64,000 nt of DNA from Alphaproteobacteria bacterium (GTDB lineage Bacteria; Pseudomonadota; Alphaproteobacteria; UBA828): positions 269,925 to 333,924 of the forward strand of contig CBDCGS010000011.1 in assembly GCA_965216915.1 (NCBI GenBank), read 5' to 3'. How positions within the stretch are numbered: the first letter of the stretch is position 1; each line of letters starts with the position of its first letter. The position numbers and the translations under genes are program-made. The notes below the pieces were generated by a model. The model was given only the letters and a program-made list of their open reading frames with translations, searched no databases and was not told the DNA's origin. Shown in pieces: positions 15,283 through 32,511 of this stretch.

Positions 15283-15326
15283 GCCCGCCGTGGCGGGACC
15301 CGGGGATCCTTGTGGGCGCGAAGGTG

Positions 15327-15348
15327 CTGTAAGAAAAGCGTCACAAAA
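15327..15348 (+). promoter_or_regulatory. Candidate Pho box
   Basis: CTGTAAG-AAAA-GCGTCAC-AAAA has 11-bp periodicity and resembles CTGTCAT-A(A/T)A(T/A)-CTGTCAC; upstream of pstS. Confidence 0.55.
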
Positions 15349-15459
15349 TCGTATCATTTCCTTGGTGGGCTCCACGTAGCGTCGCGTCCGCGGTCGCCGG
15401 GGCGCAATGGGGCGCTCGCGCACCGCATGCTTCTCGAGCCCTCATTGGGAGATCTCGCC

Positions 15460-16515: not shown

Positions 16516-16655
16516 TCATCCGACCTCACCGGGAGCACCCCGGCCACTTCGGCGCCCGCTCGCGCAAGGGAGCGGGCGCAATCTTTTGGCAAGGTCTAGC
16601 GATGCTATAATGGCGGGAGTTTTCATGAAATTGCCACGCGTCGCGGGATTGTTGC

Positions 16656-18893
16656 GTGCGCTTCTTACGACGCATCTTTCGCCGATTCAGCTGGACACAT
16701 TCGATCGCGCTCGGCGTGCTCGCGCTGTTCGTGATCCTGCGCGGGCTCGATTCCGCGCCGGTCGAAATCCTCCGGCTTAACGTTTTCGACGGCTATCAAC
16801 AGCTGAAGCCGCGCGAATCGCTGGAAAATCCGCCGATTGTCATCGTCGATGTCGATGAGGAAAGCCTCAAGGCCCATGGGCAATGGCCGTGGCCCCGCAC
16901 CCTCGTGGCATCGCTGGTCGAGGTTCTGCACCACAACGGTGTCAACGCGATCGCCTTCGACATTCTGTTTGCCGAGGAGGACCGTACATCGGGCGCCAAC
17001 ATCGCCCGAATTCTGCCCTCGCTCGGAGAGGACACCAGCAACGCGCTGAGGGCGCTGCAGAGCAACGACAGCGTGCTCGCGGACGCCTTTCAACGGGGAC
17101 GCGTGGTGCTCGGCCAGTCGGTGATCGGGCGCTCCGTCGAGGGCGATGACAGCCGCAAATCGCTAAAGGCGAATTTCGCCTACCGGTCTGCACCGGGGGT
17201 CGATGCGCGCGACCACGTCAAGCGCTATCCGGCGCTCGTGCGCAACCTGCCGATTCTGGAGGAGGCCGCCACCGGCATCGGCGTCTTCACGATCGAGCCC
17301 TCGCTCGACGGCATCGTACGCCAGGTTCCGCTTCTGCTCCGCGTGGGCGAGCACGTTTACCCGGCGCTTTCCATCGAGCTCCTGAGGGTCGCGAGCGCCC
17401 AATCGACCTTTGCCGTGCTGGCGCCGCAACCGAACGGAATCCAGTCGTTGCGCGTGCCCGCCGGCCAAGACCCGCGCGTCGTGCCCACCGAAGGCAATGG
17501 TCAAGTGTGGGTGCACTTCGCGCCCCACAATCCCGATATCTACGTGTCGGCGGCGGATATTCTTAGCGGTGCCGTCGGGCCTGAGCGCCTGGCCGGCCGA
17601 TTGGCCTTCGTCGGAACCTCGGCGATCGGCCTTCGCGACATCAAAGCGACGCCCGTCGAGGAGGCAATGCCCGGCGTCGAGGTTCACGCCCAGCTGGTCG
17701 AGACGATCCTCACCAACGATTTCCTCACCCGCCCCTTTTGGGCGATCGGCGCCGAGATCACCGCGCTGATCTTCGTCGGCCTGCTGTTGGTCGGCACGGT
17801 GCCGTTCCTCGGCGCGGTCTGGACGCTCCTCCTCGGCACAGGCATCGTCGCCGCCCTGCTCGGCCTCTCCTGGTATCTCTTTGCCGAGCAAGGGTTCCTG
17901 CTCGACATGGTCTACGTCTCGATCGCGAGCTTCGTGGTCTATGTCGTCCTGACCTACCTCAACTACATGCGCGAGGAGCGCGAGCGTCGCCAGGTGAGGG
18001 GCGCGTTCAGCCGTTACATGTCGCCGGACCTGGTCGCCCAACTCGCCGACGACCCCAGCCGGCTCAAGCTCGGCGGCGAGATGCGCGACATGACGCTTTT
18101 GTTTGCCGATATCCGGGGTTTCACGACGATCTCCGAGCAATTCGACGCCCAGGGGCTTACCCGGTTCATCAACCGTTACCTCACGCCGATGACCAACGTG
18201 ATCCTCGACCGCCGCGGCACCATCGACAAATATATGGGCGACTGCATCATGGCGTTCTGGAATGCGCCGCTCAGGGACGAGAACCATGCCGAGAACGGCG
18301 TGCGGTCCGGCCTCGCCATGCTCGCAGAGAGCGAGCGCATGAACGAGGCGCTCAAGGCGGAAGCCGAGGCGAGCGGACGCAAATACATCCCGCTCCGCAT
18401 CGGCATCGGCGTAAACACGGGCGAATGCTGCGTCGGCAACATGGGCTCCGAATTGCGCTTCGACTACTCGGTGCTCGGCGATAGCGTCAATCTTGCCTCG
18501 CGCCTGGAGGGTCAGTCCAAGAACTATGGCGTCGACTTTGTGATTGGCGAGGACACGCTTGCCCAGCTCGACGGCTTCGCCTGCCTCAAGCTCGACCGCA
18601 TCCAAGTCAAAGGCAAGACCGTACCCGTGGACATTTACTGCGTGCTCGGTGACGAGACGTTGGCGCAAGACCCGAAGTTCCGGGAGCTAGGCGAGCGTCA
18701 CGGCGAGATGCTGAACGCCTACCGCGCGCAAGACTGGAAGGTCATGCGCCGGAAGATCACCGAATGCCGCTCCCTCGACGAGGAGGGCCGCCTCAGCGTG
18801 CTCTACAACCTCTACACGGAGCGGCTCGACGAGTACGAGCGCAATCCGCCAGGCGCGGACTGGGACGGGGTCTACGTCGCGCTCAGCAAGTAG
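16656..18893 (+). CDS. CHASE2-domain class III adenylate cyclase
   Basis: CHASE2 (IVDVDEESL..GQWPWPR, FDILFAEEDR, DGIVRQVPL, PGVEVHAQ), 3 TM helices, catalytic FADIRGFT, DKYMGD, DYSVLGDSVNLASRLE. The Lys/Asp pair indicates ATP specificity. Confidence 0.95.
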   Translation: MRFLRRIFRRFSWTHSIALGVLALFVILRGLDSAPVEILRLNVFDGYQQLKPRESLENPPIVIVDVDEESLKAHGQWPWPRTLVASLVEVLHHNGVNAIAFDILFAEEDRTSGANIARILPSLGEDTSNALRALQSNDSVLADAFQRGRVVLGQSVIGRSVEGDDSRKSLKANFAYRSAPGVDARDHVKRYPALVRNLPILEEAATGIGVFTIEPSLDGIVRQVPLLLRVGEHVYPALSIELLRVASAQSTFAVLAPQPNGIQSLRVPAGQDPRVVPTEGNGQVWVHFAPHNPDIYVSAADILSGAVGPERLAGRLAFVGTSAIGLRDIKATPVEEAMPGVEVHAQLVETILTNDFLTRPFWAIGAEITALIFVGLLLVGTVPFLGAVWTLLLGTGIVAALLGLSWYLFAEQGFLLDMVYVSIASFVVYVVLTYLNYMREERERRQVRGAFSRYMSPDLVAQLADDPSRLKLGGEMRDMTLLFADIRGFTTISEQFDAQGLTRFINRYLTPMTNVILDRRGTIDKYMGDCIMAFWNAPLRDENHAENGVRSGLAMLAESERMNEALKAEAEASGRKYIPLRIGIGVNTGECCVGNMGSELRFDYSVLGDSVNLASRLEGQSKNYGVDFVIGEDTLAQLDGFACLKLDRIQVKGKTVPVDIYCVLGDETLAQDPKFRELGERHGEMLNAYRAQDWKVMRRKITECRSLDEEGRLSVLYNLYTERLDEYERNPPGADWDGVYVALSK

Positions 18894-18959
18894 CCCGAGG
18901 CTCCCTCACGACGCGGCGCAGCGACCCCAGCGCCCGCCGCCGCGGGCAGCGCCGAGACG

Positions 18960-20942
18960 CTAGTCGTAAGGCCAAAGCCGCGTGAAATTCGCCCCTTCGG
19001 CGGGACTCGTCGAGCCGGCCGTACGAGCCTCGCGCGCCACCGCGGACGCATGGGCGGGCGCCGTGGTCGCCACCACCTTCGTCTCCTGCTGAGCACGGGT
19101 CTCGCGCGGCGTCTCGACCACGTTTTCGCGCGATCCGGTCTCTTCTCCCAAGGCCGGCGCGATGTTCGCCATCGCCTCGGCCAAGGAACCGGCTGGGTCT
19201 TCGGCCGGCGGTGTCTCAGGCGCCGCAGAGGCCCCAACACGCTCGGCGTCGCGCACCGCGTCCTCGACGGCGATATCCCACGACCGCGCCTCGCCCCACA
19301 GCTCGCCGACGAGAGACTCGACGTTCATTTCCTCTGTCTCGTCAAAGGAGGCATCGGCGGCGCCGCCGCGTGCCGTCTTGACCTGCGTCACGGGGTCCAC
19401 GGGCGCGGGCGCCTCGGGCACACCGGCATCGGCACGCTCGCCGGTGGTCGTTTCGGGAGCGGGGCGCGCCTCGGCACCCCCGCGAATGCGCGTAATATGG
19501 TCGACGTCCTCACCGACCTCCGCGACCGCGCGACCATCGGGAAAGTCGGTTTGCGCGAGGCCGGAGATATTGTCCTGCGTAAGCCGCCCCATCGCGCCCA
19601 GCACGCGATAGACGCCGACCCGCGCATCGTGCTGGGCGGCGACCAAATTGATGCGAGCGTTGAAGAGCTCGTTTTCGGCGCCCAGCACGTTGATCACGGT
19701 CTCCCGACCGTTGTCACGCAGCTTGCGGCGCGCTTCGAAGACCTCGGCTGCGATATTGACGGCGTTTTGCAAAAGCCGCACGCGCTCGCGCGCCGTTTCG
19801 AGGCCGTGCCAGGCGAGGCGGACCTCCTCGACGACCTTGCGCCGCACGAAGTTGCTCGTGTCGATGCTCGCACGATACTGGTGCGACGATTCAGCCACAG
19901 CCGCGCGCGTCGCGAAGCCATTGAACAGCACCCAGCTCGCCTGAACCTTGGCCTTGTAGTCGCGGCGATCACCCTGCACGCCATCGAGATCCTGCTCGTA
20001 GGTCCACTCGCCGACGAGATCGACCGACGGGTAGAAATCAGCCTTTGCGATGCGTCGATCTTCTTCGGCGAGATCAATGCGCGTTGTCGCGTTGACGATC
20101 GCGGGATGCTCCGCCAGGGCGATGTCTTCGGCCGCGTCGAGCGAATCGGGCATGAGGCTGAGCGGCGGCGTGGGCATGACCAAATCATCGACGATCGCCG
20201 CGTGGCCGAACACCTGCGCGAAGCGGCTCAACGAATCCTCAAGCGCTCCCTCCAGCGCGACGCGGCGTTCCTTGGCGACTTGGAGGCTCCCCTTGGATTG
20301 CAGGACGTCGACCGTGATGCCCGAGCCGCGGCGGACGCGCTCGTCTTCGAGCTGCAACTGCCGCTTGATGTTGTTCTCCTGATCGCGCGAGAGCTCCACG
20401 AGGCGCGCATTGCGCAGGACCTCGAGGTAGGCATTGATCGCCTCGAAAATGACGTTCTGCGTGTTCTCCTCGAGCTCGACCTCGGCGACGTCCTTGGTAA
20501 GCCGCGCGCGGGCGTTGTTCGCCTCGGCCCGGAAGCCCGTGAACAGCGGCTGGGTGATGGTGACCGAGAGTTGCGCAGCATCGGCATTGTGAGACGCACC
20601 CTGGCCCGGGGCGGCAGCGCGCCGGCCGGGGCTATCGATCCGCTCATAGCCGTAGTCACCGAATAGGCGGGCGTTGGGGAGGTATTCGGAAAAGGCGCGG
20701 TTGATGCCTTCTTCGGTCGCCGCGACGTTCTCGCGCGCGGCCTTGATCTGGGGATGCGTCGCAAGCAGGGCGGCGATTTCGTCCTCGAGTGTCTCCGCCT
20801 GCGAGCCCACCGCCGGGAGGCTCAAGAGCGCAGCCGCTGCCGTCGCCGCAAGGGCGGCCGCGCGCCATTGCCTCAAGCGCGGTCTGGTCGATCGTTGCGG
20901 CGTTCGCTCGCGTTGGGCCGCACTGCCCTGCCCTGTCAGCAT
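18960..20942 (-). CDS. TolC-family outer membrane channel with a long low-complexity C-terminal extension
   Basis: HPQIKAARE, YLP, ITQPLFTGF, AYLEVLR, FYPSVDL, LFNGF, ETVINVLGAENELFNARINLV..H...YRVLGAMGRL. Confidence 0.9.
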   Translation of the reverse strand: MLTGQGSAAQRERTPQRSTRPRLRQWRAAALAATAAAALLSLPAVGSQAETLEDEIAALLATHPQIKAARENVAATEEGINRAFSEYLPNARLFGDYGYERIDSPGRRAAAPGQGASHNADAAQLSVTITQPLFTGFRAEANNARARLTKDVAEVELEENTQNVIFEAINAYLEVLRNARLVELSRDQENNIKRQLQLEDERVRRGSGITVDVLQSKGSLQVAKERRVALEGALEDSLSRFAQVFGHAAIVDDLVMPTPPLSLMPDSLDAAEDIALAEHPAIVNATTRIDLAEEDRRIAKADFYPSVDLVGEWTYEQDLDGVQGDRRDYKAKVQASWVLFNGFATRAAVAESSHQYRASIDTSNFVRRKVVEEVRLAWHGLETARERVRLLQNAVNIAAEVFEARRKLRDNGRETVINVLGAENELFNARINLVAAQHDARVGVYRVLGAMGRLTQDNISGLAQTDFPDGRAVAEVGEDVDHITRIRGGAEARPAPETTTGERADAGVPEAPAPVDPVTQVKTARGGAADASFDETEEMNVESLVGELWGEARSWDIAVEDAVRDAERVGASAAPETPPAEDPAGSLAEAMANIAPALGEETGSRENVVETPRETRAQQETKVVATTAPAHASAVAREARTAGSTSPAEGANFTRLWPYD

Positions 20943-21018
20943 ATCTTCCCCAACACCTTATGGTCTTACCGCGCGTCTTTCCGGCGCGGCGTCAACGAGA
21001 CGTATAGTGCGCGCGCGC

Positions 21019-22299
21019 CTATGCGTCGAGCACCAGATTGCCCTTTGGCACGGAAATGCAAGCGAGGCACGATCCGGATTCCGGCTCGGAGCCGGGCGGA
21101 TTGAGGTAATCGACATCGCCCTCTTTGATCGCAGTGATGCACGTGCCGCAATTGCCGGCCCGGCACCCAAAGTCGATATCGACGTCGTTTTCCTCGGCGA
21201 AGTCGAGGAGGGCGCCGATGTCCGGATTCCAATCGACCGTCTTACCCGATTTGGCGAAGGTCACCTGGATCCCGGCGGCCGCCTGAGATGCTTCGGTCGC
21301 ATCCTTCTGCGCCACCGGTGCCGTTTTCTTGACGGTCGCAGGGCCGAATGCCTCGTAGTGGACATGCTTCTCGGGCACGCCCCATTCCTCGAGGTCCGGA
21401 ACGATGGTGTTCATCATGGGCGGCGGGCCGCACATGTAGAAGTCGTAGTTGTTCGACGGCAGAACACGCTTGAAGAGGTCTACGCTCACCCGCTCCGCAT
21501 ATTTGTAGTCCTTGCCCTCCTCGTCATCGTCTCCGGGCGATGAGTAGCAGACGCACATGCGGACATTGTCATGCTCTCGGGCGATCCGGGCGAGATGCTC
21601 CTTCATGACGTGTTCTTTGCCATTGCGAACGCCATAGAAAAACCACGTCTCGCGCGTCGAGCCGCTCTCCACGATCTGGTTCAGCATGCTGAGCACCGGC
21701 GTCAACCCGATCCCGCCGCCGATCAGAACGACGGGTGTGTTTTTCGTCGTGTCCATGAAGAAGTGGCCGCCGGGCGCCTTGATGTCGACGATGTCGCCTT
21801 CGTCGACCTGGTCGTGGAAGAAGTTGGAGGAGAGACCGGGCGGCACGTCCGGCTTGTCGCGCGGCGGCGGCACGCGCTTGATCGAGCAGCGGTAATAGTC
21901 GGGATGATGGGGACTGTCCGACAGCGAGTAGCACCGGATCGTCGGCCGCTTCTCGCCCGGAATGTCGAGCGAGAAAGTGATGTATTGACCCGGTTCGAAC
22001 GGCGGCAGCGGCTTGCCGTCATGCGGCGAGAAATAGAACGAGCAGATGCCGCCGCCCTCCGGGGCCTTCCGCTTGATCTCGAACTTGCGAAAGCCGCTCC
22101 AAGCCCCCTCCGCCTTGGCTTGCTCGTGCTGGCGTTGGGTGACGATGCGATCGATCTCCGTTTGGAAAACCTTCGCCTGCATATCGGCCGTGCGCACGGC
22201 GGCCGCGGAGCGACGCAGGTTGCCAACGGCCGTGTTCAAGAGAACGAGCGTCAGTATCGCGAGAAAGACGATCGCGACGACCTGAATTGCGATCTCCAT
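21019..22299 (-). CDS. Membrane-anchored FAD/NAD(P)H oxidoreductase (FNR-like) with C-terminal [2Fe-2S] ferredoxin
   Basis: N-terminal TM helix; PGQY, RCYSL, GLSS, GGGIGLTP, YMCGP, EAF; CRAGNCGTC...C plant-type ferredoxin motif. Confidence 0.93.
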   Translation of the reverse strand: MEIAIQVVAIVFLAILTLVLLNTAVGNLRRSAAAVRTADMQAKVFQTEIDRIVTQRQHEQAKAEGAWSGFRKFEIKRKAPEGGGICSFYFSPHDGKPLPPFEPGQYITFSLDIPGEKRPTIRCYSLSDSPHHPDYYRCSIKRVPPPRDKPDVPPGLSSNFFHDQVDEGDIVDIKAPGGHFFMDTTKNTPVVLIGGGIGLTPVLSMLNQIVESGSTRETWFFYGVRNGKEHVMKEHLARIAREHDNVRMCVCYSSPGDDDEEGKDYKYAERVSVDLFKRVLPSNNYDFYMCGPPPMMNTIVPDLEEWGVPEKHVHYEAFGPATVKKTAPVAQKDATEASQAAAGIQVTFAKSGKTVDWNPDIGALLDFAEENDVDIDFGCRAGNCGTCITAIKEGDVDYLNPPGSEPESGSCLACISVPKGNLVLDA

Positions 22300-22319
22300 G
22301 GCTCGCCCCTCTCCTCAGC

Positions 22320-23858
22320 CTAGAACTTGCGTCGGATCTCCAGCCGTGCGCCCGCGATGTCCGCTTCCTCGACCCGGGCGCCATACATCGCGTCGGCACG
22401 CAGGATCCAAGCCTCGCTGAGCGGAAATTGGTAGCGCACGCCGGCCGCGTACTCGTCACCCGCAGCCGGGCGGCCCGGTTCGTTGTCGCTCCCCATGACC
22501 TGCACGGTCGCCACCTCGACGACGATCTGCCGGTCGAGGGCGAACAAGTACTGCAATCCAAGCGCCCCGCCGAAGGTGTCTTGGCCGCTCGCATCGAGGG
22601 TCGGGAAGCCTGTCAGGTTGTCGCTCTCGAAGTTGATGCCCGTATTGCGTAGCACGCCACCGGCGGCACCAGCGCGGGCGGCGGCTTGCGGACGATCGAA
22701 GCCGGCCCAGACGTTGAAGTAAGGAAGCAGGGTCGAGGGCAGCTCGGTGATCAGCGAATTCTCCACCAGGAAAATGACGCCGTCGGCCGTCTGCTGACCC
22801 ACCGTCGGATCCTGCGAAACGTTCCAGATGACCCGCACGCTGTTGGAGAGCCAGGCCCCGTAGCGCTTGGAGAACGCCAAGGTCAGGTTGAGATAGTCGA
22901 ACTCGTCGAAACTGTCCTTGCCGTCGATATAGGCCATACCGAGTTCCCAGAAGCCCTGGTTGGCCTCGATGAACGCGGCAGCACCGTAGATACTGACATT
23001 GTGATCGGCGGCGGCGCCATCGGCGGCCACGATCGCCGGCGTCGTCACTTTGTCAAACCCGAAGAAGAACGAGAAATCCATGTTGGAAATGTCGAGCGTC
23101 GGGCTGTTGAGCGCGGGAATGGCGAACGCGAAACCGGTGAACGCATCCTCTAGCCACACGCCGTTTTGATAGAGGAGCGGCATCAGGCCGACGGCGAACG
23201 GCAGATCCAGCGACGTGTAATTCCCGGTCAGGCCAGACCAGATGGGTCCCACGTCGCCTTCGAAGAACAACGCATCCAAGTTGAGATTGAATACGAGGTC
23301 GCAGCGGTCGCTCTGGCTGCGATCGTTACCGAAGAGCTCGCAGTTGGTAAAGTTCGCGCCCTGCTGAAGCGGACCAATGAACCAATGGATGCGCTCGGTC
23401 GAGGTGAATTGATAATCGAATTCGAGATTGAGCCGCGTGGCAACCTGGCCAAGCTCGGCCGCGCCGTTGTCGTTGTACGCGACGGCCGCGCGCCAATCAC
23501 CGTAGACGTAGAACTCGGTGAAGGTCGGGTTGAGCTCACCGAGGAAGGTCCCGTGGTCCGTGAACGGACCAGCGGTGTAGAGCTCGCGGCCCGCCTCGAT
23601 GAGAGGCCGCGTCACCACATAAGCTGACTTGCCACCATAGATCTCGAGCTGCGCGTCGATATCGTAGGGCTTGTCCTCGTAGCTTGGATCGGGCCGAAAC
23701 ACATCCCGGTCATGCTCGACCTGGCGTGCCGCCGGATCCATTTCGATCTCAGCGGAAACCACCGGGTCAACGACACCAAGAGTCAGCGCCACTGCCGCGG
23801 CAACCGCTCCCCCCGCCAGGCGGCGGGGGGAAACGGCGGAACGTCCTGTGGTATTCAC
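22320..23858 (-). CDS. Putative outer-membrane beta-barrel protein
   Basis: Signal peptide, many amphipathic aromatic-bounded strands, C-terminal beta-signal-like ARLEIRRKF ending in Phe; 2-nt gap after the pentaheme cytochrome gene. Confidence 0.7.
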   Translation of the reverse strand: MNTTGRSAVSPRRLAGGAVAAAVALTLGVVDPVVSAEIEMDPAARQVEHDRDVFRPDPSYEDKPYDIDAQLEIYGGKSAYVVTRPLIEAGRELYTAGPFTDHGTFLGELNPTFTEFYVYGDWRAAVAYNDNGAAELGQVATRLNLEFDYQFTSTERIHWFIGPLQQGANFTNCELFGNDRSQSDRCDLVFNLNLDALFFEGDVGPIWSGLTGNYTSLDLPFAVGLMPLLYQNGVWLEDAFTGFAFAIPALNSPTLDISNMDFSFFFGFDKVTTPAIVAADGAAADHNVSIYGAAAFIEANQGFWELGMAYIDGKDSFDEFDYLNLTLAFSKRYGAWLSNSVRVIWNVSQDPTVGQQTADGVIFLVENSLITELPSTLLPYFNVWAGFDRPQAAARAGAAGGVLRNTGINFESDNLTGFPTLDASGQDTFGGALGLQYLFALDRQIVVEVATVQVMGSDNEPGRPAAGDEYAAGVRYQFPLSEAWILRADAMYGARVEEADIAGARLEIRRKF

Positions 23859-23860
23859 GG

Positions 23861-25678: not shown

Positions 25679-27650
25679 TGTCGTCTCTCGCCATCCGCAG
25701 GTCAAAACCGGGCTCAAAGTGATACACGTGGCAAAGTTGGCAATCCTGCCGCACCTGGCCTTCGTTGTGGCATTGAGCGCATGATTCCTGACTTATCGGA
25801 TAAAAGTTGCTCTCGAAGTGATGGGGGTCACTCTGTCCAAATGACTCCGCGAACTGCGCCGCCTCATTGATCTTATGACACACTCTGCAGCCGCTGTCCG
25901 GATCCATGAGGTTGACGCCTTCCGGATCGAGGAGTGTGAGATGCGTCCCGTGCGAATAGCTCGTGTAGGGACGCGCTTCAGACGGCCGGTAACGCCATTC
26001 GAGTTCCAGCGCGCCGTCAGCGTTGCCTGAAACCGCATGGCATTTCGTGCAGGCGCCGACGCCATCCGAGCGGCTGAGCACGCTGTCGCGCATCATCGTC
26101 GCGTATTCCACCAGGTCGTCCTCGCCCGCTTCGTGCACGCTCTCGACGGAAAACTCGAGCCAGGCACGCGCCACCGCATCGCCATGGTCGAGCGGCCGGT
26201 ATTTAAGCTCGACCAGATCGCCGTACCAACCGCCGAAATCCGGATCCATCGGCGCCTCATATTCGAGGTTGTTCGCCCACGCGCAAGCCACTCGCTTCAC
26301 GAGCTCGGCGTTGAGGCCGGACAACAGGTCCGTCGCATTGCCGCCGCGCTCCTCGACGAGCTCCGCGATCGGCGCCGGACCCTCTTCCATCAACCGCGCC
26401 ACGAACTCTTGAATCGGCTCGCTATATTCTTCCATGTCGTCCGTCGGCACGCCCAGCAGATAGGCGATCACGGGCGTCGGCTCGTCCACCGAGGCGGGGT
26501 CGTACCACTCCTCCTCCTCGTCGTCCTCCGACATATCGAGCATGCCCGCGTCGTCGGCCTCCATGGCCTCGTCGATCATCTCCTTCAGGCCGGTCATCTG
26601 CTCCATCACGGCTTCCCACGCTTCCAGCGTGGGGCCGCACGCTTCCATGACCCGCTCGGGATCGATGAGGTTCTCCTCGAACTCCGGGAGCCGAAGCAGG
26701 ATGAGGTCGCGCGTGACCACCGTGTCGTAGTGGCAGGTCGCGCACGCCTCGAAGCCGGTCGGCTGGACCGCCTGCGCCGCGGTGTCGACCTCGTGGCAGG
26801 TGGTGCAGTCCTCGGGCGCGAGATCGGCGTAGCGTTGATCCACGAAATGCTTGGTGATGTGCGAGGAATGGTTGAAGGCGATCGACGTGCGCCGGTCGTG
26901 CGGGAATGTGTTGCCGAACGACGGATGGTTGTCGCCGAAATCATCCGCCTGCTTCTCATGGCAGAGATTGCATTGCCCGTCGGAGAGGTTCGTCAGGTCG
27001 TAGTCCTCTCCCTTGTGCTCGGTGTGGCACATGACGCATTGGGTCGGCGGGGCGTTGGCGTTGCTCGTCTGGACCAAGCCCGCGTTGTTGTGGGCAAGCC
27101 GCGCATCGCCGCCAAAGGTATGACAATCGAGGCATTGGCCGGTCATGTCCTGCTCGTGGAAGGCCGCCAGGAACCAGTCGCCTGCATCCTCCCCATGCGC
27201 CGTGTGGCAGGAGACGCACCCAGTCTCGGCGGTGAAGTTGGCATGTCCACCGGTGAGTGTGCCGGCGCTCTTCACGGCGTCACCGGCATCGCCACCGAAG
27301 GTCAGGAAGACGGCGATCAAGGCCACCACGGTCGCAAACGCCCCGCCCGCAAGAAACTGGCGCACGCGACGGATGGTGCGCCGTGGTCGACACGGTGGAT
27401 GCTGTTGCGAGCACGTGCCGTCGGACTTCGGCCCGGTGTCGCACGGGCCGCCGAAGAGCGGCGAGCGGCGGCACTCGAAGCGATCGCCGACCTGCGCCGG
27501 TCGGCACTCGGTTGTCCCACCGCATCGTCCATTCACGGTGGGCCCGAACTCGCAAGGCTTGTCCCAGGCGGCGCCGCGGCCGCACCGGAAGCGCAGAGTC
27601 GGCCGCTCGTAACGGCTGACGTCGTGCTTGAATTTCTCCGGATCCATCAT
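25671..27650 (-). CDS. Membrane-anchored decaheme c-type cytochrome with an N-terminal Cys-rich domain
   Basis: Ten CxxCH (CVSCH, CLDCH, CVMCH, CNLCH, CTTCH, CATCH, CTKCH, CRVCH, CAQCH, CQLCH); one TM helix after an 8-Cys N-terminus; ATGA-coupled to the upstream gene. Confidence 0.92.
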   Translation of the reverse strand: MMDPEKFKHDVSRYERPTLRFRCGRGAAWDKPCEFGPTVNGRCGGTTECRPAQVGDRFECRRSPLFGGPCDTGPKSDGTCSQQHPPCRPRRTIRRVRQFLAGGAFATVVALIAVFLTFGGDAGDAVKSAGTLTGGHANFTAETGCVSCHTAHGEDAGDWFLAAFHEQDMTGQCLDCHTFGGDARLAHNNAGLVQTSNANAPPTQCVMCHTEHKGEDYDLTNLSDGQCNLCHEKQADDFGDNHPSFGNTFPHDRRTSIAFNHSSHITKHFVDQRYADLAPEDCTTCHEVDTAAQAVQPTGFEACATCHYDTVVTRDLILLRLPEFEENLIDPERVMEACGPTLEAWEAVMEQMTGLKEMIDEAMEADDAGMLDMSEDDEEEEWYDPASVDEPTPVIAYLLGVPTDDMEEYSEPIQEFVARLMEEGPAPIAELVEERGGNATDLLSGLNAELVKRVACAWANNLEYEAPMDPDFGGWYGDLVELKYRPLDHGDAVARAWLEFSVESVHEAGEDDLVEYATMMRDSVLSRSDGVGACTKCHAVSGNADGALELEWRYRPSEARPYTSYSHGTHLTLLDPEGVNLMDPDSGCRVCHKINEAAQFAESFGQSDPHHFESNFYPISQESCAQCHNEGQVRQDCQLCHVYHFEPGFDLRMARDDNE

Positions 27651-28462
27651 AGCGCGTACACGTTCACGACGATCACGTGCCAGAACATCAGCCCGAGCAC
27701 GGCCGCGGCGAGCGGCACGTGCACCAGCAGCCACATCTTCATGATCGACTGGCAGGCGTAGTGGAGGTCGATGTCGTTCTTGTAGCGCGCGAGCGCCGTG
27801 ATCGTTTCGAGATGCGCCCGCTCGGCGTCGTTCAGGTAACGATCGATGGTCTGGTGCTGATGGCTGATCCAGTGCTCGCCGGCCTGACCGCCGAGCGCGT
27901 GGTTGAGGTAGAAGCGCGGCTTCCGGAAGTACCAGCGCATGGTCTCGAGGTAATGACGCGCGAGGGTGTCGCTGCCGGTCTCATCTGCGCAGGCGCGCAC
28001 CGCAGCCTCGGCCTTCTCGCGCACCTCGGCGATCTCCGCCGGAATGCGCTCGTAGATGATCTCGAAATCGGATTGCACGAGGCGCTTCGGGTAATAGCGC
28101 TGAATGATGTAGCCGAAGATCCCACTCAACGAGACCATGTAGAACGTCACGGCAAGCGCCTGCTCATAGGCGCCGCTCGGCCAGAAGCTCCCGGTGTGCA
28201 CGAAGAAGATCGCGATGGCCACCATGCCGCCGACCGCGTGGAACGCGAGCCAATAGGCGACCCGCCCGAGCGGCACCATCGAGAGCTTCTTGCGCGTGTT
28301 GAAGATGGCGAGCGCCAGCATCAGGGCGAACAGGGCGTAGCCGGTGATAAATTCCGAGCGGCCCAGGCTCAGCCGCGCCTCGTTCGCGTAGACGGTGAGC
28401 GAGATGATCGCGGCGATCGCGATCAGCCAGAGGACCGCGTAGCGGACGAGGATCGCGTTCAC
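27647..28462 (-). CDS. Integral membrane protein, putative diheme cytochrome b
   Basis: About 5 TM segments; two helices each carry His at i and i+14 (HAVGGMVAIAIFFVH; HVPLAAAVLGLMFWH); GTG start overlaps the upstream stop (GTGA). Confidence 0.75.
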   Translation of the reverse strand: MNAILVRYAVLWLIAIAAIISLTVYANEARLSLGRSEFITGYALFALMLALAIFNTRKKLSMVPLGRVAYWLAFHAVGGMVAIAIFFVHTGSFWPSGAYEQALAVTFYMVSLSGIFGYIIQRYYPKRLVQSDFEIIYERIPAEIAEVREKAEAAVRACADETGSDTLARHYLETMRWYFRKPRFYLNHALGGQAGEHWISHQHQTIDRYLNDAERAHLETITALARYKNDIDLHYACQSIMKMWLLVHVPLAAAVLGLMFWHVIVVNVYAL

Positions 28463-30132
28463 AGCGTCGCCCCCCGGAAGGTCTCGTCGCCCTTGAAGTC
28501 GACCCGCCTCAGCGCGTCGTGCGGACAGGCGCGCACACAGGCCGGCCCACCCGGATTGCCGGCGCAAAGATCGCACTTCGTCGCCTTCATGATCGGCTTC
28601 TGGCTGTCCGGATCGCGCAGCAGCTGCCCTTGCATGTCGCGAATCTCGACCAGACGGATGTTGTTGTAGGGGCAGGAGTTCGCGCAGGTTCCGCAGCCGA
28701 TGCAGGTGTCGTCATTGACCACCACCGCGCCCGTTGACAGCGAACGGTGAATGGCGCCCGTGGGGCAGCCGATCATGCACACCGGGTCGGCGCAATGCAT
28801 GCAGGCATTAGCCACCATCCAATGGTCGAACGTGCGCCCGTGGCGCGCGAAGCGCGGGTTGCCGCCATGGGTCGAGGCGCACGCACGCACGCAATCATCG
28901 CAGCGCACACAGCGATTGATGTCGATCAACATCGCCATTGTGCCGTTGATGAAGCGCTGCTCGACCGACCATTCCATCGGCGCATCCGCCGAGACGGCGC
29001 GCGTCGCCAGATCCGTAAGCGGCGTTGGGGCCTGACGCAAATTGGGGAACACATACTTCTCGAGGATCGGCGCCGGCACGCGCAGCAGGTCGACATAGCC
29101 GAGCGCCGTGAGCGTGGTCTGCAAGGAGACATCGGTGCCGTCGCGGCCCGCCCACAGCTCGTCGAAGCCGAACACGTCGCCGGCGCCGAGATAAGTCAGC
29201 GTGCGCTGGCCCTTGCCCATACTGATCGACACCCGTGCGAAACCCGCGCGAATCATCAAGAGGCCGTCCGGATACTCGCCCTGCTTGGCGATCACCGGCT
29301 CCTTGTCGGCCTTGCCCTGGTCGCGCATGCGCTTGTAGCTGACGTGCCAGTCGAAAGCGCCGTGGGTCTCGAACAGCGTGGCGTCACTCACCTCCTGGAT
29401 TTGCTCGTCGGTGAGACGCGCGAACAACGGCGACTCGCGAAGGTGCACCTTGAGAGCATTCTCGCGGTAGCGCTCGTCGATGGTGCGCCGCCAGCCGGGA
29501 TCGTATTTGCGCAACTCGCGCAGACCCTGCCAGCGGATCTCGAGCAGCTCCGCTTCTTCCTCCGCGAAGATCGTTGCGGTGCGCGGCACGCGCCCGAGCG
29601 CCGCGAGCTCCCCAAACAGGGTGCCGGCGCCAAGCTCGGCGGTGTTGTGCTTGTCGACCACCGCCGGCACGTCCTGGAGGAACACGCGGGTCGACCCGAG
29701 ATCGGCATCGCCCGACTCCCGGCGCACCGCCTGGCCGCCATAGCGGTGCGTGTCACGCACCTCGGGCACGATGCGGTTGGTCCAGAGCTGTGCCAATGCC
29801 TCCACGAAGGTCTTCTTGCGGGTGACCTGGCGGCCGATCAGGTTGCGCGGCAAGCCGGGTGCGAGCACCACGCGCAGCTTGCCCGAGATCACCAAGAACG
29901 CCGAATTGCCGTAGTCACCTTCGCGAACGACGAGGTCGCCCGGCCGATAGCTGACGAGCCGAGTGTCATTCCGGATGATGCCCTGGAGCGGGGTGTGCTT
30001 GGGGAAGCTATCGGCGTCGATCGCCGCGAACTCGGACAGGTCCATGAGCCGCTCTGCGTCGGCATCTGACATATCCGGCCCGAACGGCGCGTCCCAACGT
30101 TGCGGGCGCGCCATCATGGCGACGTTTGCCAA
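28459..30132 (-). CDS. Tandem cyclic-nucleotide-binding domains fused to a 4x[4Fe-4S] (DmsB/NrfC-type) ferredoxin
   Basis: VVREGDYGNSAFLVISG...FGELAALGRVPRTAT; second domain KQGEYPDGLLMIRAG...GDVFG; 16 Cys in CVRCDDCVRAC, CMHCADPVCMIGC, CIGCGTCANSC, CDLC...CVRAC. Confidence 0.92.
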   Translation of the reverse strand: MANVAMMARPQRWDAPFGPDMSDADAERLMDLSEFAAIDADSFPKHTPLQGIIRNDTRLVSYRPGDLVVREGDYGNSAFLVISGKLRVVLAPGLPRNLIGRQVTRKKTFVEALAQLWTNRIVPEVRDTHRYGGQAVRRESGDADLGSTRVFLQDVPAVVDKHNTAELGAGTLFGELAALGRVPRTATIFAEEEAELLEIRWQGLRELRKYDPGWRRTIDERYRENALKVHLRESPLFARLTDEQIQEVSDATLFETHGAFDWHVSYKRMRDQGKADKEPVIAKQGEYPDGLLMIRAGFARVSISMGKGQRTLTYLGAGDVFGFDELWAGRDGTDVSLQTTLTALGYVDLLRVPAPILEKYVFPNLRQAPTPLTDLATRAVSADAPMEWSVEQRFINGTMAMLIDINRCVRCDDCVRACASTHGGNPRFARHGRTFDHWMVANACMHCADPVCMIGCPTGAIHRSLSTGAVVVNDDTCIGCGTCANSCPYNNIRLVEIRDMQGQLLRDPDSQKPIMKATKCDLCAGNPGGPACVRACPHDALRRVDFKGDETFRGATL

Positions 30133-30338
30133 CTCCTGTCCCCCCTGTCTCAGGCCTTCGCGACGTCAGGAGACGACCGCCTCGGCCGGGCGCCGTCTCC
30201 CCCCTTTTCGCGTCGCGTTAGCTTCCCTTTGAACGCAATAGAGTCGGGTGTTTCGGTCTCTCGGGTCCTTCAAACATACCGGCGAGCGGGGGTGAAGCCT
30301 CGCACGGCCGCTCGGCATCCCCCGCCGCGCTCACAAAC

Positions 30339-31277
30339 CTACTTGTAGCTATCCTTGCTAGGCAACTTGCCGCCGACCTCTCCGCTGAGGTCTTTGCCCT
30401 TGATCGCTTCGACCATTGCCCGCGCGGCTTCAGCCGTCGGGTTGGCAAGCAAATCAGCCGCCGCGCTGACACTGCTCAAGGCGTCCCGAGCCGCGGCCGC
30501 GCGTGCTTCCTGGAACTCCTTGTACTTGGCCGATACGTCATTTGCCGCAGCCTGGGTCGCGGACACGAGCTTCGCCGCCTGGCCGACGACGAACATGTTG
30601 GCAGCCTCCTGCGGCGTCATCTCCGCATTCACGGTCATGTTGGGCGGATAGAACCGATGGCGCACCGAGCCCTGGCTGTAGCGCACCAGCTCCCAATCGG
30701 GAACGGTGGGATGGCCGGCCTCGAGCATCTTGGCCAAGGTGTCGGCCGGGACGTTGGGGTTGGCGAGACCGTGGCACTCCTGGCAATTCTCGGCGACGCC
30801 ATAGGTGTCGCTCGGCCAACGCATGCCGGCCGCTGCGGCGTCCGCGATGCGCTTGGCCTTGTGCTCGGCTGATTCATCCTCGCGCTTGACGCTCGGTCCG
30901 CCATAGTCGTTGTGGATCTTTAACCAGTCGGACGATGCGCCGTGGCAGCTTTCACATGACGGGCCAGCCTTCGGGCTCGCCTTGCCGCCGGGCTTCTTGG
31001 CAATCATCGTGTAGTGGCACTGCGTGCACACCTCACTCTTCTTCATGCTTTTCTCGCCGATGGCCTTCAGAATGCCCTTGGCCTTGTCGGACTTGTGCAC
31101 CGTCTTGAGTGATTTGGCGTGCGCCGTGGCTTCCCAGATCTCGTGCTCCGCGCGATGACACTCGGCGCAAACCTTGGGCCCCTGATTGTAGGCCTCGGCT
31201 TTCGCACCGATTGTCGGCGCAATCATGAAGGCCGCGAACAGCATCGCCGCCGCCACCCCAAATGCCGCAAATCGCAT
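30339..31277 (-). CDS. Periplasmic tetraheme c-type cytochrome (c554-like)
   Basis: Signal peptide (AKA-EA); CAECH, CTQCH, CESCHG, CQECH. Confidence 0.9.
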   Translation of the reverse strand: MRFAAFGVAAAMLFAAFMIAPTIGAKAEAYNQGPKVCAECHRAEHEIWEATAHAKSLKTVHKSDKAKGILKAIGEKSMKKSEVCTQCHYTMIAKKPGGKASPKAGPSCESCHGASSDWLKIHNDYGGPSVKREDESAEHKAKRIADAAAAGMRWPSDTYGVAENCQECHGLANPNVPADTLAKMLEAGHPTVPDWELVRYSQGSVRHRFYPPNMTVNAEMTPQEAANMFVVGQAAKLVSATQAAANDVSAKYKEFQEARAAAARDALSSVSAAADLLANPTAEAARAMVEAIKGKDLSGEVGGKLPSKDSYK

Positions 31278-31350
31278 GTGTGAATCCCCCGCAGACTAGT
31301 GAATGCCTCCTGCTGTCATGATGCGTGATTTGCCCGAGTCAGACAACCCC

Positions 31351-31366
31351 CGTGATGGAACTCAAA
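31351..31366. promoter_or_regulatory. Candidate CRP/FNR-family binding site
   Basis: CGTGA-TGGAAC-TCAAA matches 8/10 of TGTGA-N6-TCACA and also 8/10 of TTGAT-N4-ATCAA; about 75 bp upstream of the tetraheme cytochrome gene. Confidence 0.35.
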
Positions 31367-31436
31367 GCGCCGAGTCCGTTTTGGTTCAAACGATTACCAA
31401 ACACAACCAACCCCCGGTGCCCCCCGCGGCACGGGC

Positions 31437-32261
31437 TCACGCGAGGCGGATGCGCATGTTCTCGCGCGCGACGAAGGCGCCGCGCCAGGTCCGCCGGGCT
31501 TCTGCTTCGACGCGCTCCATGAAGCGGTCCTCGTGGTCCGGATCGTGGTGGAAGATCGCGAGCGAGCGCACGTTGGCGGCGCGCGCCAACCTGACGCCCT
31601 CCTGCCATGTCGAATGACCCCAGCCGACCTTGCTGGGGAACTCGTCGTCGGTGTACGTCGAATCGTAGATCATCAGGTCGGTGCCCTCGACGAGCCCGAG
31701 AATGTTCTCGTCCGGTTGATCGGGGATATGCTCGGTGTCCGTCACGTAGCAGACCGATTTGCCGGCATAGTCCAGGCGATAGCCGGTCGCGCCATTGGGG
31801 TGGTTGAGCGGCGCGGTTCGCACCTTGATGCCACCAGTGAGCTCGAACGCGTCGCCCGCCTCGAAATCCTCGAAGCGGAGCGTCGCCTTCATCGCCTCGA
31901 GCGGCACCGGGAACATCGGGTTCTGCATCTGCCCCGACAGCACCTGCTTCAGCCCGCCCCGCGTGTTCAGATGGCCCGCCATCAGGACGAACTCGTGGTC
32001 CGGCCGAAAGGCCGGCGCGAAGAACGGGAAGCCCGTGATGTGATCCCAGTGCGTGTGGGAGAACAGGAGCGTCGACCGACTGATCCCCTTGCGGAAATTC
32101 CAGTGGCCGAGATTGCGCACACCGGTGCCAGCGTCGAGGATCAGCTGGGTGCCACCGGCGTTGACCTCGACGCAGCTCGTGTTGCCGCCGAACACGATGT
32201 GGCTCGGTGACGGACAGGCAATGCTTCCACGCACGCCCCAGAACTTAACCTTCAGACCCAT
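31437..32261 (-). CDS. MBL-fold metallo-hydrolase (RNase Z / phosphodiesterase-like)
   Basis: KFWGVRGS..GGNTSCVEV, DAGTG, SHTHWDH, NHP, TDTEH, WGHS, FHHDP. Confidence 0.9.
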   Translation of the reverse strand: MGLKVKFWGVRGSIACPSPSHIVFGGNTSCVEVNAGGTQLILDAGTGVRNLGHWNFRKGISRSTLLFSHTHWDHITGFPFFAPAFRPDHEFVLMAGHLNTRGGLKQVLSGQMQNPMFPVPLEAMKATLRFEDFEAGDAFELTGGIKVRTAPLNHPNGATGYRLDYAGKSVCYVTDTEHIPDQPDENILGLVEGTDLMIYDSTYTDDEFPSKVGWGHSTWQEGVRLARAANVRSLAIFHHDPDHEDRFMERVEAEARRTWRGAFVARENMRIRLA

Positions 32262-32511
32262 CGCGCGCCTCCGGGCGACGCTGACCCCCACGGTCTTTCT
32301 GAACGTGCCGACCCATGCAGACGAGCCCTTGTCGCGACCAAGGCCCCGTGTGGCCCGTACGCGTCGGCACGCCCGTTCTCAGCGCATTTCACCCGCCGGC
32401 AGTCCGGCCCGCTGTGACCGCCGTCACACGCATGCGCGGCTCTTGTTCTTGAGCGGCAGTCCCCATGAGCACGTCGGTGCCAGGCCCCGGCACCCCACGG
32501 CACGACGCGTG

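Follow-up and report, generated by a model that had tools for sequence, protein, structure and literature searches.

NADPH oxidases (NOX), ferric reductases and the Fre-MsrQ pair share one logic: two b-type hemes, held on two pairs of histidines, receive electrons from a cytoplasmic NAD(P)H flavoreductase and pass them outward without a quinone. In MtrCAB, PioAB and MtoAB, multiheme cytochromes are encoded beside an outer-membrane beta-barrel, which in MtrB has 26 strands. In Geobacter, the gene of the pentaheme selenoenzyme MccSep (ExtKL) adjoins that of the porin ExtI. A 2026 report shows MccSep, a periplasmic pentaheme cap with an immunoglobulin-like stem, to be a polysulfide reductase (PMC13510729). 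A further multiheme gene cluster, ptdABCDEFG, was named from Alphaproteobacteria of marine oxygen-deficient zones in a 2024 preprint, whose main text states that the function of Ptd 'remains completely unknown' (10.1101/2023.11.21.568154). Here we analyse a copy of ptd in the genome of an alphaproteobacterium (assembly GCA_965216915.1), within a stretch of 64,000 nucleotides of contig CBDCGS010000011.1 that we call the window.

The main text of the preprint (10.1101/2023.11.21.568154) reports carriers of ptd genes from saline habitats among the Alpha- and Gammaproteobacteria, the Nitrospirales and the Planctomycetes, finds ptdAB highly transcribed in an ocean oxygen-deficient zone and proposes, by analogy, that Ptd is an extracellular electron conduit. 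It also names the cytochrome c552 of Thermochromatium (T.) tepidum (structure 5ZE8) in connection with PtdA. The seven products that it lists are a pentaheme cytochrome with a C-terminal beta-rich domain, a porin, an oxidoreductase, a tetraheme cytochrome, an Fe-S protein with cyclic nucleoside monophosphate (cNMP) domains, a membrane protein and a decaheme cytochrome. Judged by their products, the seven core genes of the window (21019-31277) are this cluster in the order D-E-F-G-A-B-C, and they match the published list gene for gene. Penta-, tetra- and decaheme cytochromes c are encoded together (5, 4 and 10 CXXCH motifs), the gene of the porin-like barrel adjoins the pentaheme gene with a gap of 2 nt, and the flavin adenine dinucleotide (FAD)/NAD(P) oxidoreductase, the cNMP-domain 4Fe-4S protein and the membrane protein are all present. 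Among the PtdA relatives are metagenome-assembled genomes labelled as coming from the same ocean region as those of the preprint (locus L016). A sequence-only reading made earlier of this DNA knew of no characterised system with such a composition. As the cluster was named in the preprint without a known function, its composition is not new, yet it is uncharacterised; literature searches, with most subscription journals outside their reach, found no later work on ptd. New in this analysis are the predicted class of the PtdB barrel, a predicted docking of PtdA on PtdB, traits of PtdF, an N-terminal segment of PtdG with eight cysteines and the conservation of PtdE.

We propose, as a reading that we think rather probable, that ptdDEFGABC encodes an envelope-spanning redox system of two modules, which is driven outward by NAD(P)H without a quinone and ends at PtdA docked on PtdB. 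PtdC, with its NAD(P)H, FAD and [2Fe-2S] domains, would be the likely electron input. The inner-membrane module would comprise PtdE, a cytoplasmic four-cluster ferredoxin fused to cNMP-binding domains, PtdF, whose four invariant histidines on two helices would hold one b-heme near each membrane face, and the decaheme cytochrome PtdG, which would stand on the periplasmic side, anchored by one helix, with its 8-Cys segment on the cytoplasmic side. The soluble tetraheme cytochrome PtdD would bridge this inner module to PtdA. In turn, PtdA would dock at the periplasmic mouth of PtdB and push a heme-free conserved segment into the lumen, and a small soluble acceptor would reach it through PtdB. Such an outer module would be closer to an enzyme paired with a porin than to a wire of hemes that crosses the outer membrane. 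As candidate switch we name the conserved cNMP pocket of PtdE. Outward flow would spend membrane potential, which would make Ptd a costly reductive pathway rather than an energy-conserving respiration, and a switch plausible. The sequence-only reading had already suggested that these parts could form a continuous chain, and this idea stands: PtdC, a PtdE with four predicted [4Fe-4S] clusters, the His-paired PtdF and 10 + 4 + 5 c-type hemes could be joined, with the barrel at the end.

The seven genes form a real conserved unit, as had been supposed. We collected the best 80 of 570 loci in species-representative genomes and the best 80 of 536 in metagenomes, and the removal of 17 duplicates left 143 distinct loci. 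Tallies rest on tblastn matches, because length-based picking of open reading frames (ORFs) settled on antisense ones in several of the high-GC loci. All seven genes are present in 70 of the 143 loci, and many of the others end at contig ends. The order D-E-F-G-A-B-C is the commonest of the sample (61/143), far beyond chance, and ptdD is likewise the first gene of the D-E-F-G module in 61/143. D-E-F-G and A-B-C each move as a block, and the two blocks also occur as ABC-DEFG, gfed-ABC and ABC-gfed. In 124 of 128 loci, the matches of ptdA and ptdB, both on the + strand, are at most 400 bases apart (end of one to start of the other). The system is common: PtdA has 3085 relatives in the protein collection (the 119 listed are 62-79% identical) and is encoded at no fewer than 570 places in species-representative genomes and at 536 in the metagenome scan. 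Carriers are labelled Pseudomonadota, Planctomycetota, Verrucomicrobiota and Acidobacteriota. Cultured carriers include Kordiimonadales bacterium IMCC3096, whose locus L014 has all seven genes, Minwuia thermotolerans (L023) and Marinobacter sp. CHS3-4, whose locus L075 shows ptdA and ptdB only. Among 201 evenly sampled Alphaproteobacteria, five encode a PtdA orthologue (at least 62% identity). The source genome has a single copy of each ptd gene.

Two further observations concern relatives of these proteins. A second, distant PtdA-like family, 39-43% identical over most of its length, occurs in 6/201 sampled Alphaproteobacteria (G017:C86:5141-6706, G176:C111:8369-9955, G131:C30:162901-164445, G182:C12:7750-9321, G172:C3:46091-47632 and G155:C3:2830566-2831570). 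Four loci with the order D-A-B (L080, L197, L071 and L072) have very divergent relatives of PtdE, PtdF and PtdG (23-35% identical) nearby, on the opposite strand or downstream, and hence the inner-membrane module has at least two deep lineages.

We first consider the inner-membrane module. PtdE matches cNMP_binding (88.8 bits, in three stretches) and Fer4_11 (39.7 bits, cut-off 26.2), and its best NCBIfam matches are four-cluster subunits of the DmsB/HybA/NrfC type, all below their cut-offs. Its 16 cysteines fall into four ferredoxin-type groups and are all invariant in 52/52 sequences, which argues for four [4Fe-4S] clusters, as the sequence-only reading had it, and not for the two given in the main text of the preprint (10.1101/2023.11.21.568154). 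That reading also assigned PtdE two cNMP domains. The first has a canonical pocket in 51/52 sequences (F168 in 52/52; G169, E170 and R179 in 51/52 each; T/S180 in 48/52; A181 in 46/52). The second has no conserved arginine at the matching place (R in 7/52) and hence lacks the phosphate-binding residue in most members. No export signal or Tat motif was seen in the PtdE translation, so the protein would lie in the cytoplasm. These sequence features make cyclic-nucleotide control through PtdE a plausible and fair hypothesis.

For PtdF, the earlier description as a His-paired membrane protein is confirmed: H75, H89, H248 and H262 are the only invariant histidines in 42 sequences, and they form two H-x13-H pairs. 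The AlphaFold2 model (predicted local distance difference test, pLDDT, 92.7; predicted template-modelling score, pTM, 0.84) has five long hydrophobic helices: four are N-terminal, and a helical insert of ~110 residues separates them from the last, which is 59 residues long. The positive-inside rule would make the insert and the ends with H75 and H248 cytoplasmic and those with H89 and H262 periplasmic. The geometry of the conserved residues would suit one b-heme near each membrane face; the structure models themselves carry no cofactors. The main text of the preprint describes PtdF as ferric-reductase-like (10.1101/2023.11.21.568154), and the Atlas cluster of PtdF carries the automatic label 'ferric reductase like', although no Pfam family is common in that cluster. 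We found no detectable relation of PtdF to PF01794, the ferric reductase family. Searches of Pfam (to E <= 10) and NCBIfam gave no family, with noise only from Pfam (including DUF4405 at E 5), and the PF01794 model had no match in the source genome at E <= 1e-8. An hhalign comparison of PtdF with PF01794, made with seven members from related genomes and a small target alignment, gave a probability of 0.5%. Against the Protein Data Bank (PDB), none of 217 listed Foldseek matches of the PtdF fold reached E <= 0.001 (best 0.31), NOX, STEAP and MsrQ chains were absent from those listed, and the best E of the PtdF profile against PDB sequences was 0.54. What PtdF shares with the PF01794 layout is two His pairs spaced by ~13 residues, a likeness of working principle only. 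Four invariant histidines without a family or fold match suggest that PtdF is a di-heme carrier like NOX and MsrQ in principle, and not a detectable member of their family. By analogy, the logic of Ptd would resemble that of NOX and Fre-MsrQ, with a flavoreductase, two His pairs on two helices and quinone-free outward flow. The differences are the five helices and the ~110-residue cytoplasmic insert of PtdF, and Fe-S proteins between the flavin and the hemes.

The same proteins might instead form a quinone-linked respiratory module, in which PtdF would oxidise quinol or reduce quinone as proteins of the NarI/NrfD/CybB kind do, and PtdC and PtdE would serve another purpose, such as sensing or a side input. 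A four-cluster ferredoxin with a membrane subunit and a periplasmic multiheme cytochrome is the layout of Hmc, Tmc and Nrf systems, and di-heme membrane proteins often have quinone sites. However, PtdF has no match to the NrfD, NarI, cytochrome b and ferric-reductase families, PtdE would be cytoplasmic, unlike partners of the NrfC/DmsB type, and between 41 and 47 of the best 80 of 570 genome-collection loci, depending on the way of counting, keep an NAD(P)H reductase in the cluster. We therefore regard a quinone-linked module as quite improbable.

PtdG was described by the sequence-only reading as a decaheme cytochrome. The ten CXXCH motifs are there, but the description omitted a conserved 8-Cys segment at the N-terminus and a membrane helix. 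The main text of the preprint places PtdG in the periplasm (10.1101/2023.11.21.568154), whereas we find a membrane anchor preceded by this segment. Each of the eight cysteines is conserved in 95-100% of 55 sequences, and an Arg-rich stretch lies between them and the single hydrophobic helix, features from which the 8-Cys head would be cytoplasmic. It may bind an Fe-S cluster or zinc and may be a docking point for PtdE. The N-terminus has no Pfam family at E <= 10 and no Atlas match. At the other end, residues 556-660 of a 687-aa ORF that begins at an upstream GTG (27734) match Mtrc-MtrF_II-IV_dom with 32.9 bits (cut-off 30). The hemes of PtdG are arranged as six and then four, split by a poorly conserved, very acidic linker (window 26400-26700, residues ~320-420) that varies in length; relatives have 537-702 residues.

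The electron input and the shuttle were assigned from PtdC and PtdD. Reductases of the FNR type with a C-terminal plant-type ferredoxin run from NAD(P)H to an acceptor. The reductase part of PtdC resembles that of flavohemoprotein (274.5 bits, cut-off 432), and the translation of PtdD starts with a signal-like sequence. Flow in the opposite direction would make Ptd an electron-uptake system: PtdA would oxidise Fe(II) or a reduced sulfur or nitrogen donor, external or periplasmic, and electrons would run inward to NAD(P)+. Systems of the Cyc2 and MtoAB types do run inward. The main text of the preprint also reports that nitrite oxidisers of the Nitrospirales carry ptd genes and that carriers transcribe sulfur-oxidation genes (10.1101/2023.11.21.568154). 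On the other side, inward transfer would oppose the membrane potential, the reduction of NAD(P)+ from such donors would be uphill, and reductases with the layout of PtdC normally oxidise NAD(P)H. Electron uptake is in our view the most improbable of the readings considered here.

We then turned to the outer module. The sequence-only reading took the product of 22320-23858 for a probable barrel, and the AlphaFold2 model of PtdB is indeed a beta-barrel (pLDDT 84.6) with ~19 strand segments, corresponding to 18-20 strands. PtdB has no Pfam family. Foldseek gave 211 matches at E <= 0.001, led by 18-strand OccK/OprD, AlgE and chitoporin channels (OccK3 4.3e-11, AlgE 5.8e-11, chitoporin 3.5e-10; also OpdK). 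The C-terminal phenylalanine is invariant in 50/50 sequences. The model thus points to a barrel like OprD and AlgE and not of the MtrB size class, one that would be too narrow to sheath a chain of hemes.

The nearest solved relative of PtdA is cytochrome c552 of T. tepidum (5ZE8, E 1.5e-8 with the family profile), followed by MccSep (E 0.01) and c554 (E 0.036). Only the N-terminal heme region aligns: the significant solved matches of the profile, 5ZE8 and four weaker cytochromes, lie within the first 148 of 584 positions, and the C-terminal domain has no solved or Pfam relative. Among the cysteines of PtdA, only those of the CXXCH motifs are invariant, and there is no conserved extra Cys or selenocysteine (Sec). 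Residues 489-541 have many invariant positions and no CXXCH. The high conservation of PtdA would fit a catalyst better than a generic wire.

A complex of PtdB 55-512 with PtdA 64-605 was predicted with a score of 0.83 (runs 0.87, 0.83 and 0.81; controls 0.16, 0.00 and 0.00). Of 80 solved complexes, 58 reached the mark for such scores, as did 2 of 110 mismatched pairs; these counts are only rough, since the alignments were our own. At least 61% of contacts are common to the runs, and the pLDDT of the partners is at least 80. In the prediction, the N-terminal extension of PtdB (57-111) and its C-terminal residues 509-512 contact the heme domain of PtdA, and residues of most PtdB strands contact PtdA 489-541. 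Outer-membrane barrels have both termini in the periplasm. The predicted contacts suggest to us that PtdA sits beneath the barrel and that a heme-free plug occupies the lumen. No solved complex of this kind emerged from the matches of the PtdA profile or from PtdB, which lacks a Pfam family. The sequence-only reading had raised cytochrome insertion into the barrel as a point to check. Docking is predicted, but the luminal segment is heme-free.

These results bear on the 'MtrAB type' label of the sequence-only reading, which they do not support, and on the conduit proposed in the preprint. In such a conduit, a heme chain through the barrel would reduce or oxidise external insoluble minerals or electrodes. 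As in MtrCAB, PioAB and MtoAB, multiheme cytochromes are encoded beside the barrel and one of them is predicted to bind it, and the C-terminal four-heme part of PtdG passes the cut-off of the MtrC/MtrF domain II/IV model. However, PtdB is predicted to have 18-20 strands and resembles narrow substrate channels, whereas barrels of the MtrB type have 26 or more, and the predicted luminal segment of PtdA lacks CXXCH. The DmsE/MtrA family model TIGR03508 gives 34.8 bits (cut-off 192.2), and does so on PtdA rather than on the decaheme cytochrome, which is tethered to the inner membrane. No MtrC-like surface lipoprotein cytochrome is encoded in the cluster. Named carriers are mostly marine or freshwater bacteria, for example Minwuia, Kordiimonadales and Marinobacter, none of which is to our knowledge a mineral respirer. 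An MtrAB-type conduit is hence very unlikely.

A closer precedent, by analogy, for an enzyme-plus-porin reading of PtdA and PtdB may be ExtHIJKL of Geobacter, in which the pentaheme protein MccSep is a catalytic enzyme rather than a wire (PMC13510729). PtdA is not itself a member of the MccSep family (37.8 bits with the ExtKL model, cut-off 250). We rejected an MccSep-like sulfur enzyme for this reason and because, without conserved Cys or Sec outside its five CXXCH motifs, PtdA lacks the His/Cys-heme and Sec chemistry of MccSep.

Taken one step further, Ptd might be a cNMP-gated, quinone-independent valve. A cNMP bound to PtdE would open or shut a chain that runs from NAD(P)H through PtdF, of a new di-heme family, to the periplasm, and the chain would end in a new kind of complex, a porin plugged by a pentaheme reductase whose substrate it admits; the 8-Cys head of PtdG would perhaps add new Fe-S or zinc sites. 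We put this forward tentatively, as a possibility that is less likely to be right than wrong.

The positions of all features are given in Table 1.

Table 1. Genes and sequence features of the ptd locus and its neighbours, in positions of the window.
Feature	Position	Strand	Evidence or remark
CHASE2 sensor with class III nucleotide cyclase	16656-18893	+	CHASE2 194.5 bits, Guanylate_cyc 74.8 bits
TolC-family outer-membrane channel	18960-20942	-	OEP 192.3 bits, TIGR01844 241.3 bits (cut-off 225.15, passed); start codon uncertain
ptdC, membrane-anchored NAD(P)H/FAD/[2Fe-2S] reductase	21019-22299	-	NAD_binding_1 77.3 bits, Fer2 48.5 bits, FAD_binding_6 24.5 bits
ptdB, predicted outer-membrane beta-barrel with conserved N-terminal extension	22320-23858	-	no Pfam family; C-terminus ...RRKF
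ptdA, exported pentaheme cytochrome c with family-specific C-terminal domain	23861-25678	-	5 CXXCH
PtdA residues 489-541, predicted to contact many PtdB strands	24056-24214	-	interface list of the complex prediction
ptdG, decaheme cytochrome c with one membrane-helix anchor	25671-27650	-	10 CXXCH
PtdG N-terminal 8-Cys segment, residues 23-87	27390-27584	-	two C-x9-C-x9-C-x5/6-C units
ptdF, inner-membrane protein of five helices and a cytoplasmic helical insert; putative carrier of two b-hemes	27647-28462	-	AlphaFold2 model
PtdF His75 and His89, helix 3, H-x13-H	28196-28240	-	invariant in 42/42
PtdF His248 and His262, last helix, H-x13-H	27677-27721	-	invariant in 42/42
ptdE, two cNMP-binding-like domains and a four-cluster ferredoxin domain	28459-30117 (ATG; alternative TTG 30132)	-	cNMP_binding, Fer4_11
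PtdE phosphate-binding cassette of the first cNMP domain, residues 168-181, FGELAALGRVPRTA	29575-29616	-	conservation in 52 sequences
PtdE four Cys groups, residues 403-531, taken as 4 x [4Fe-4S]	28525-28911	-	16 invariant Cys
ptdD, c554-like tetraheme cytochrome c, exported; probable shuttle in the periplasm	30339-31277	-	4 CXXCH; Cytochrome_C554 49.9 bits
Metallo-beta-lactamase (MBL)-fold hydrolase, RNase Z-like	31437-32261	-	Lactamase_B_2 83.8 bits

The gene calls of the sequence-only reading hold throughout. The ORF list and the translations bear out its ten genes with their positions, strands, overlaps and gaps, Pfam and NCBIfam agree with every domain call, and the CXXCH count confirms its 19 c-type heme motifs (4 in the tetraheme, 10 in the decaheme and 5 in the pentaheme cytochrome). 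The junctions are tight, with a GTGA overlap between ptdE and ptdF (28459-28462), an ATGA overlap between ptdF and ptdG (27647-27650), an 8-nt overlap between ptdG and ptdA (25671-25678), the 2-nt gap between ptdA and ptdB (23859-23860) and a 20-nt gap between ptdB and ptdC (22300-22319). As had also been said, Pfam and NCBIfam reveal no molybdo- or hydrogenase-type subunit among these genes. A promoter and terminator scan of 16000-33000 stayed at the level of shuffled sequence (2 sites vs 2.7, and 12 vs 11.0) and thus does not delimit transcription units. No RNA run turned up for 22300-32291; the four runs that are listed come from a single study and have no kind on record. The single strong terminator-like hairpin of the region (16552-16579) follows a gene for a PstS-like periplasmic binding protein (PBP_like_2, 167.2 bits; 15310-16515, + strand), which ends 140 bases before the cyclase start on the same strand; a PstS-like gene also adjoins the cyclase in loci L001 and L002. 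Between 14000 and 34000, G+C is 0.615-0.662 over the ptd genes and their neighbours and 0.68-0.71 on either side. The lower-GC stretch takes in the cyclase, TolC, MBL and a thiamine-pyrophosphate enzyme gene, and not only ptd. A heavy-metal P-type ATPase (E1-E2 ATPase, HMBD, YHS) lies near ptd in two unrelated loci (L065:314-2662, and a related ORF after ptdC in L029), which may hint at a metal link or be chance.

The sequence-only reading had given the system its own cyclase and a candidate phosphodiesterase. In its full form, cyclic adenosine monophosphate (cAMP), produced by the adjacent CHASE2 cyclase and broken down by the adjacent MBL protein, would turn the wire on or off by binding to PtdE. 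The conserved first pocket of PtdE agrees with such a self-contained module, as does the recurrence of cyclases in ptd flanks that we describe below. The gene tallies do not. Where loci have enough flank, MBL is directly upstream of ptdD in 5/59, TolC is next after ptdC in 10/60 and a CHASE2 cyclase is downstream in 9/46, and homologous operons thus mostly lack the cyclase and MBL neighbours. MBL relatives (E <= 1e-20) occur in 96/201 sampled Alphaproteobacteria, against 5/201 for PtdA, and all 4 other PtdA carriers of this sample have PtdA and their best MBL match on separate contigs. On these tallies we rejected MBL as a part of Ptd. None of the 29 best MBL loci of other genomes has a ptd or CHASE2 gene within 1.5 kb, apart from a 25%-identical FNR-type stretch.

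The neighbourhood itself also exists without ptd. Ptd-free stretches of five other genomes (G127, G045, G098, G029 and G006) combine an MBL orthologue (56-68% identical) with a CHASE2 cyclase (39-49%) at a distance of 3-15 kb; four of the cyclase matches are full-length, and the one in G006 is cut by the stretch end. This proximity of the two genes could favour a shared cAMP function, but it is found where ptd is absent. In G045, a TolC orthologue is also convergent with the cyclase, as in the window. A sixth MBL-CHASE2 region that was fetched (G191) ended before its CHASE2 gene. In a maximum-likelihood tree of 19 full-length cyclases, the label 'ptd-linked' needs 4 changes (shuffled mean 5.3; 4 or fewer in 82/500 shuffles), and the sister of the window's cyclase clade is the G045/G098 pair from ptd-free stretches (support 90/92). 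This tree leaves out matches aligned over fewer than ~600 query residues (L004, L027, L152, L061, L062 and L100), other cyclase-domain genes of the source genome and duplicate loci. The ptd-linked cyclases have no clade of their own, and we rejected a Ptd-specific cyclase subfamily. Together, the synteny in ptd-free stretches and the tree indicate that this ptd copy sits inside an older neighbourhood of MBL, TolC and cyclase.

The MBL protein aligns over its full length with NF041851 ('cyclic nucleotide-degrading phosphodiesterase'), though with 46.3 bits against a cut-off of 400. It scores higher with RNase Z models (70.2 bits), yet below their cut-off, and its sole solved match is the RNase Z 2CBN (E 1.6e-7). 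The source genome encodes an MBL paralogue (34-40% identical) immediately upstream of a CHASE2-SpoIIE/PP2C protein (L161:2496-5657, i.e. G000:C11:1017495-1020656), a pairing that recurs by coordinates in G111:C42, G129:C44, G182:C19 and G100:C9. This ties the MBL family to CHASE2 sensors of any output and argues against a role as a cyclic-nucleotide phosphodiesterase. The TolC protein has a low-complexity C-terminal tail of ~200 residues, rich in Ala, Pro and Glu (window 18960-19560), beyond its family match (residues 48-459). The main text of the preprint mentions no cyclase, CHASE2, lactamase, TolC or phosphodiesterase, though its figures and supplements may differ (10.1101/2023.11.21.568154). 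From these sequence comparisons, the MBL hydrolase and TolC are probably chromosomal neighbours and not parts of Ptd, the cyclase looks like a further ordinary neighbour, and the framing of a system with its own cyclase and phosphodiesterase is largely explained by where this copy sits in the chromosome. We regard the full cAMP model as unlikely.

Several points weigh against the two-module system that we favour. The heme b of PtdF, the clusters of PtdE and any cofactor of the PtdG head are read from conserved residues only. The PtdA-PtdB score expresses the confidence of the model in itself, and we read the insertion into the lumen from a contact list without coordinates. Furthermore, ptdA and ptdB stand alone in 14/143 loci, several of which (L062, L065, L075 and L078) have at least 5 kb on both sides; PtdAB can thus be encoded apart from the rest and may draw on other electron donors. 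In rearranged loci, ptdC accompanies ptdA-ptdB and not ptdE-F-G, which is not what one expects of a dedicated PtdC-to-PtdE couple. Finally, a CHASE2 cyclase occurs in the flanks of 17/143 loci. Over 878,658 bp of flank this amounts to ~19 per Mb, compared with 1.3 per Mb in the source genome (6 CHASE2 genes in 4.68 Mb), a contrast that is overstated because ptd loci are related to one another; at least one CHASE2 gene is present in 89/201 sampled Alphaproteobacteria. These flank cyclases come in at least five arrangements, in loci labelled Alphaproteobacteria, Planctomycetota and Acidobacteriota: in the window's clade the cyclase follows TolC convergently, in L044 it comes after a glutamate-dehydrogenase gene, in L027 and L152 it lies upstream of ptdD, in L061 downstream of ptdB and in L062 (labelled Planctomycetota) upstream of ptdA-ptdB, and L065 (labelled Acidobacteriota, genes called by Pfam) has a cyclase-FecR-TPR group divergent from MBL-ptdA-ptdB. 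A similar cyclase-FecR pair in L081 was called by tblastn likeness to the L065 proteins and not by Pfam. We take a functional link of ptd with cNMP signalling through flank cyclases as a lead and not as support.

The striking idea of an own cyclase and phosphodiesterase therefore reflects the chromosomal position of this copy and not Ptd itself. The system is widespread, and PtdB, PtdF, the head of PtdG and the tail of PtdA are parts without a known family or solved relative. If our reading is right, Ptd would be a bacterial counterpart of electron export of the NADPH-oxidase type, joined to an enzyme that sits on an outer-membrane channel of its own and perhaps switched by a cyclic nucleotide. 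It would then matter for the chemistry of iron, nitrogen, sulfur or reactive oxygen at the surface of the cells of abundant aquatic bacteria. The cNMP-gated valve, if it proved true, would mean direct control of a respiratory-type electron chain by a second messenger, in at least 570 species-representative genomes.

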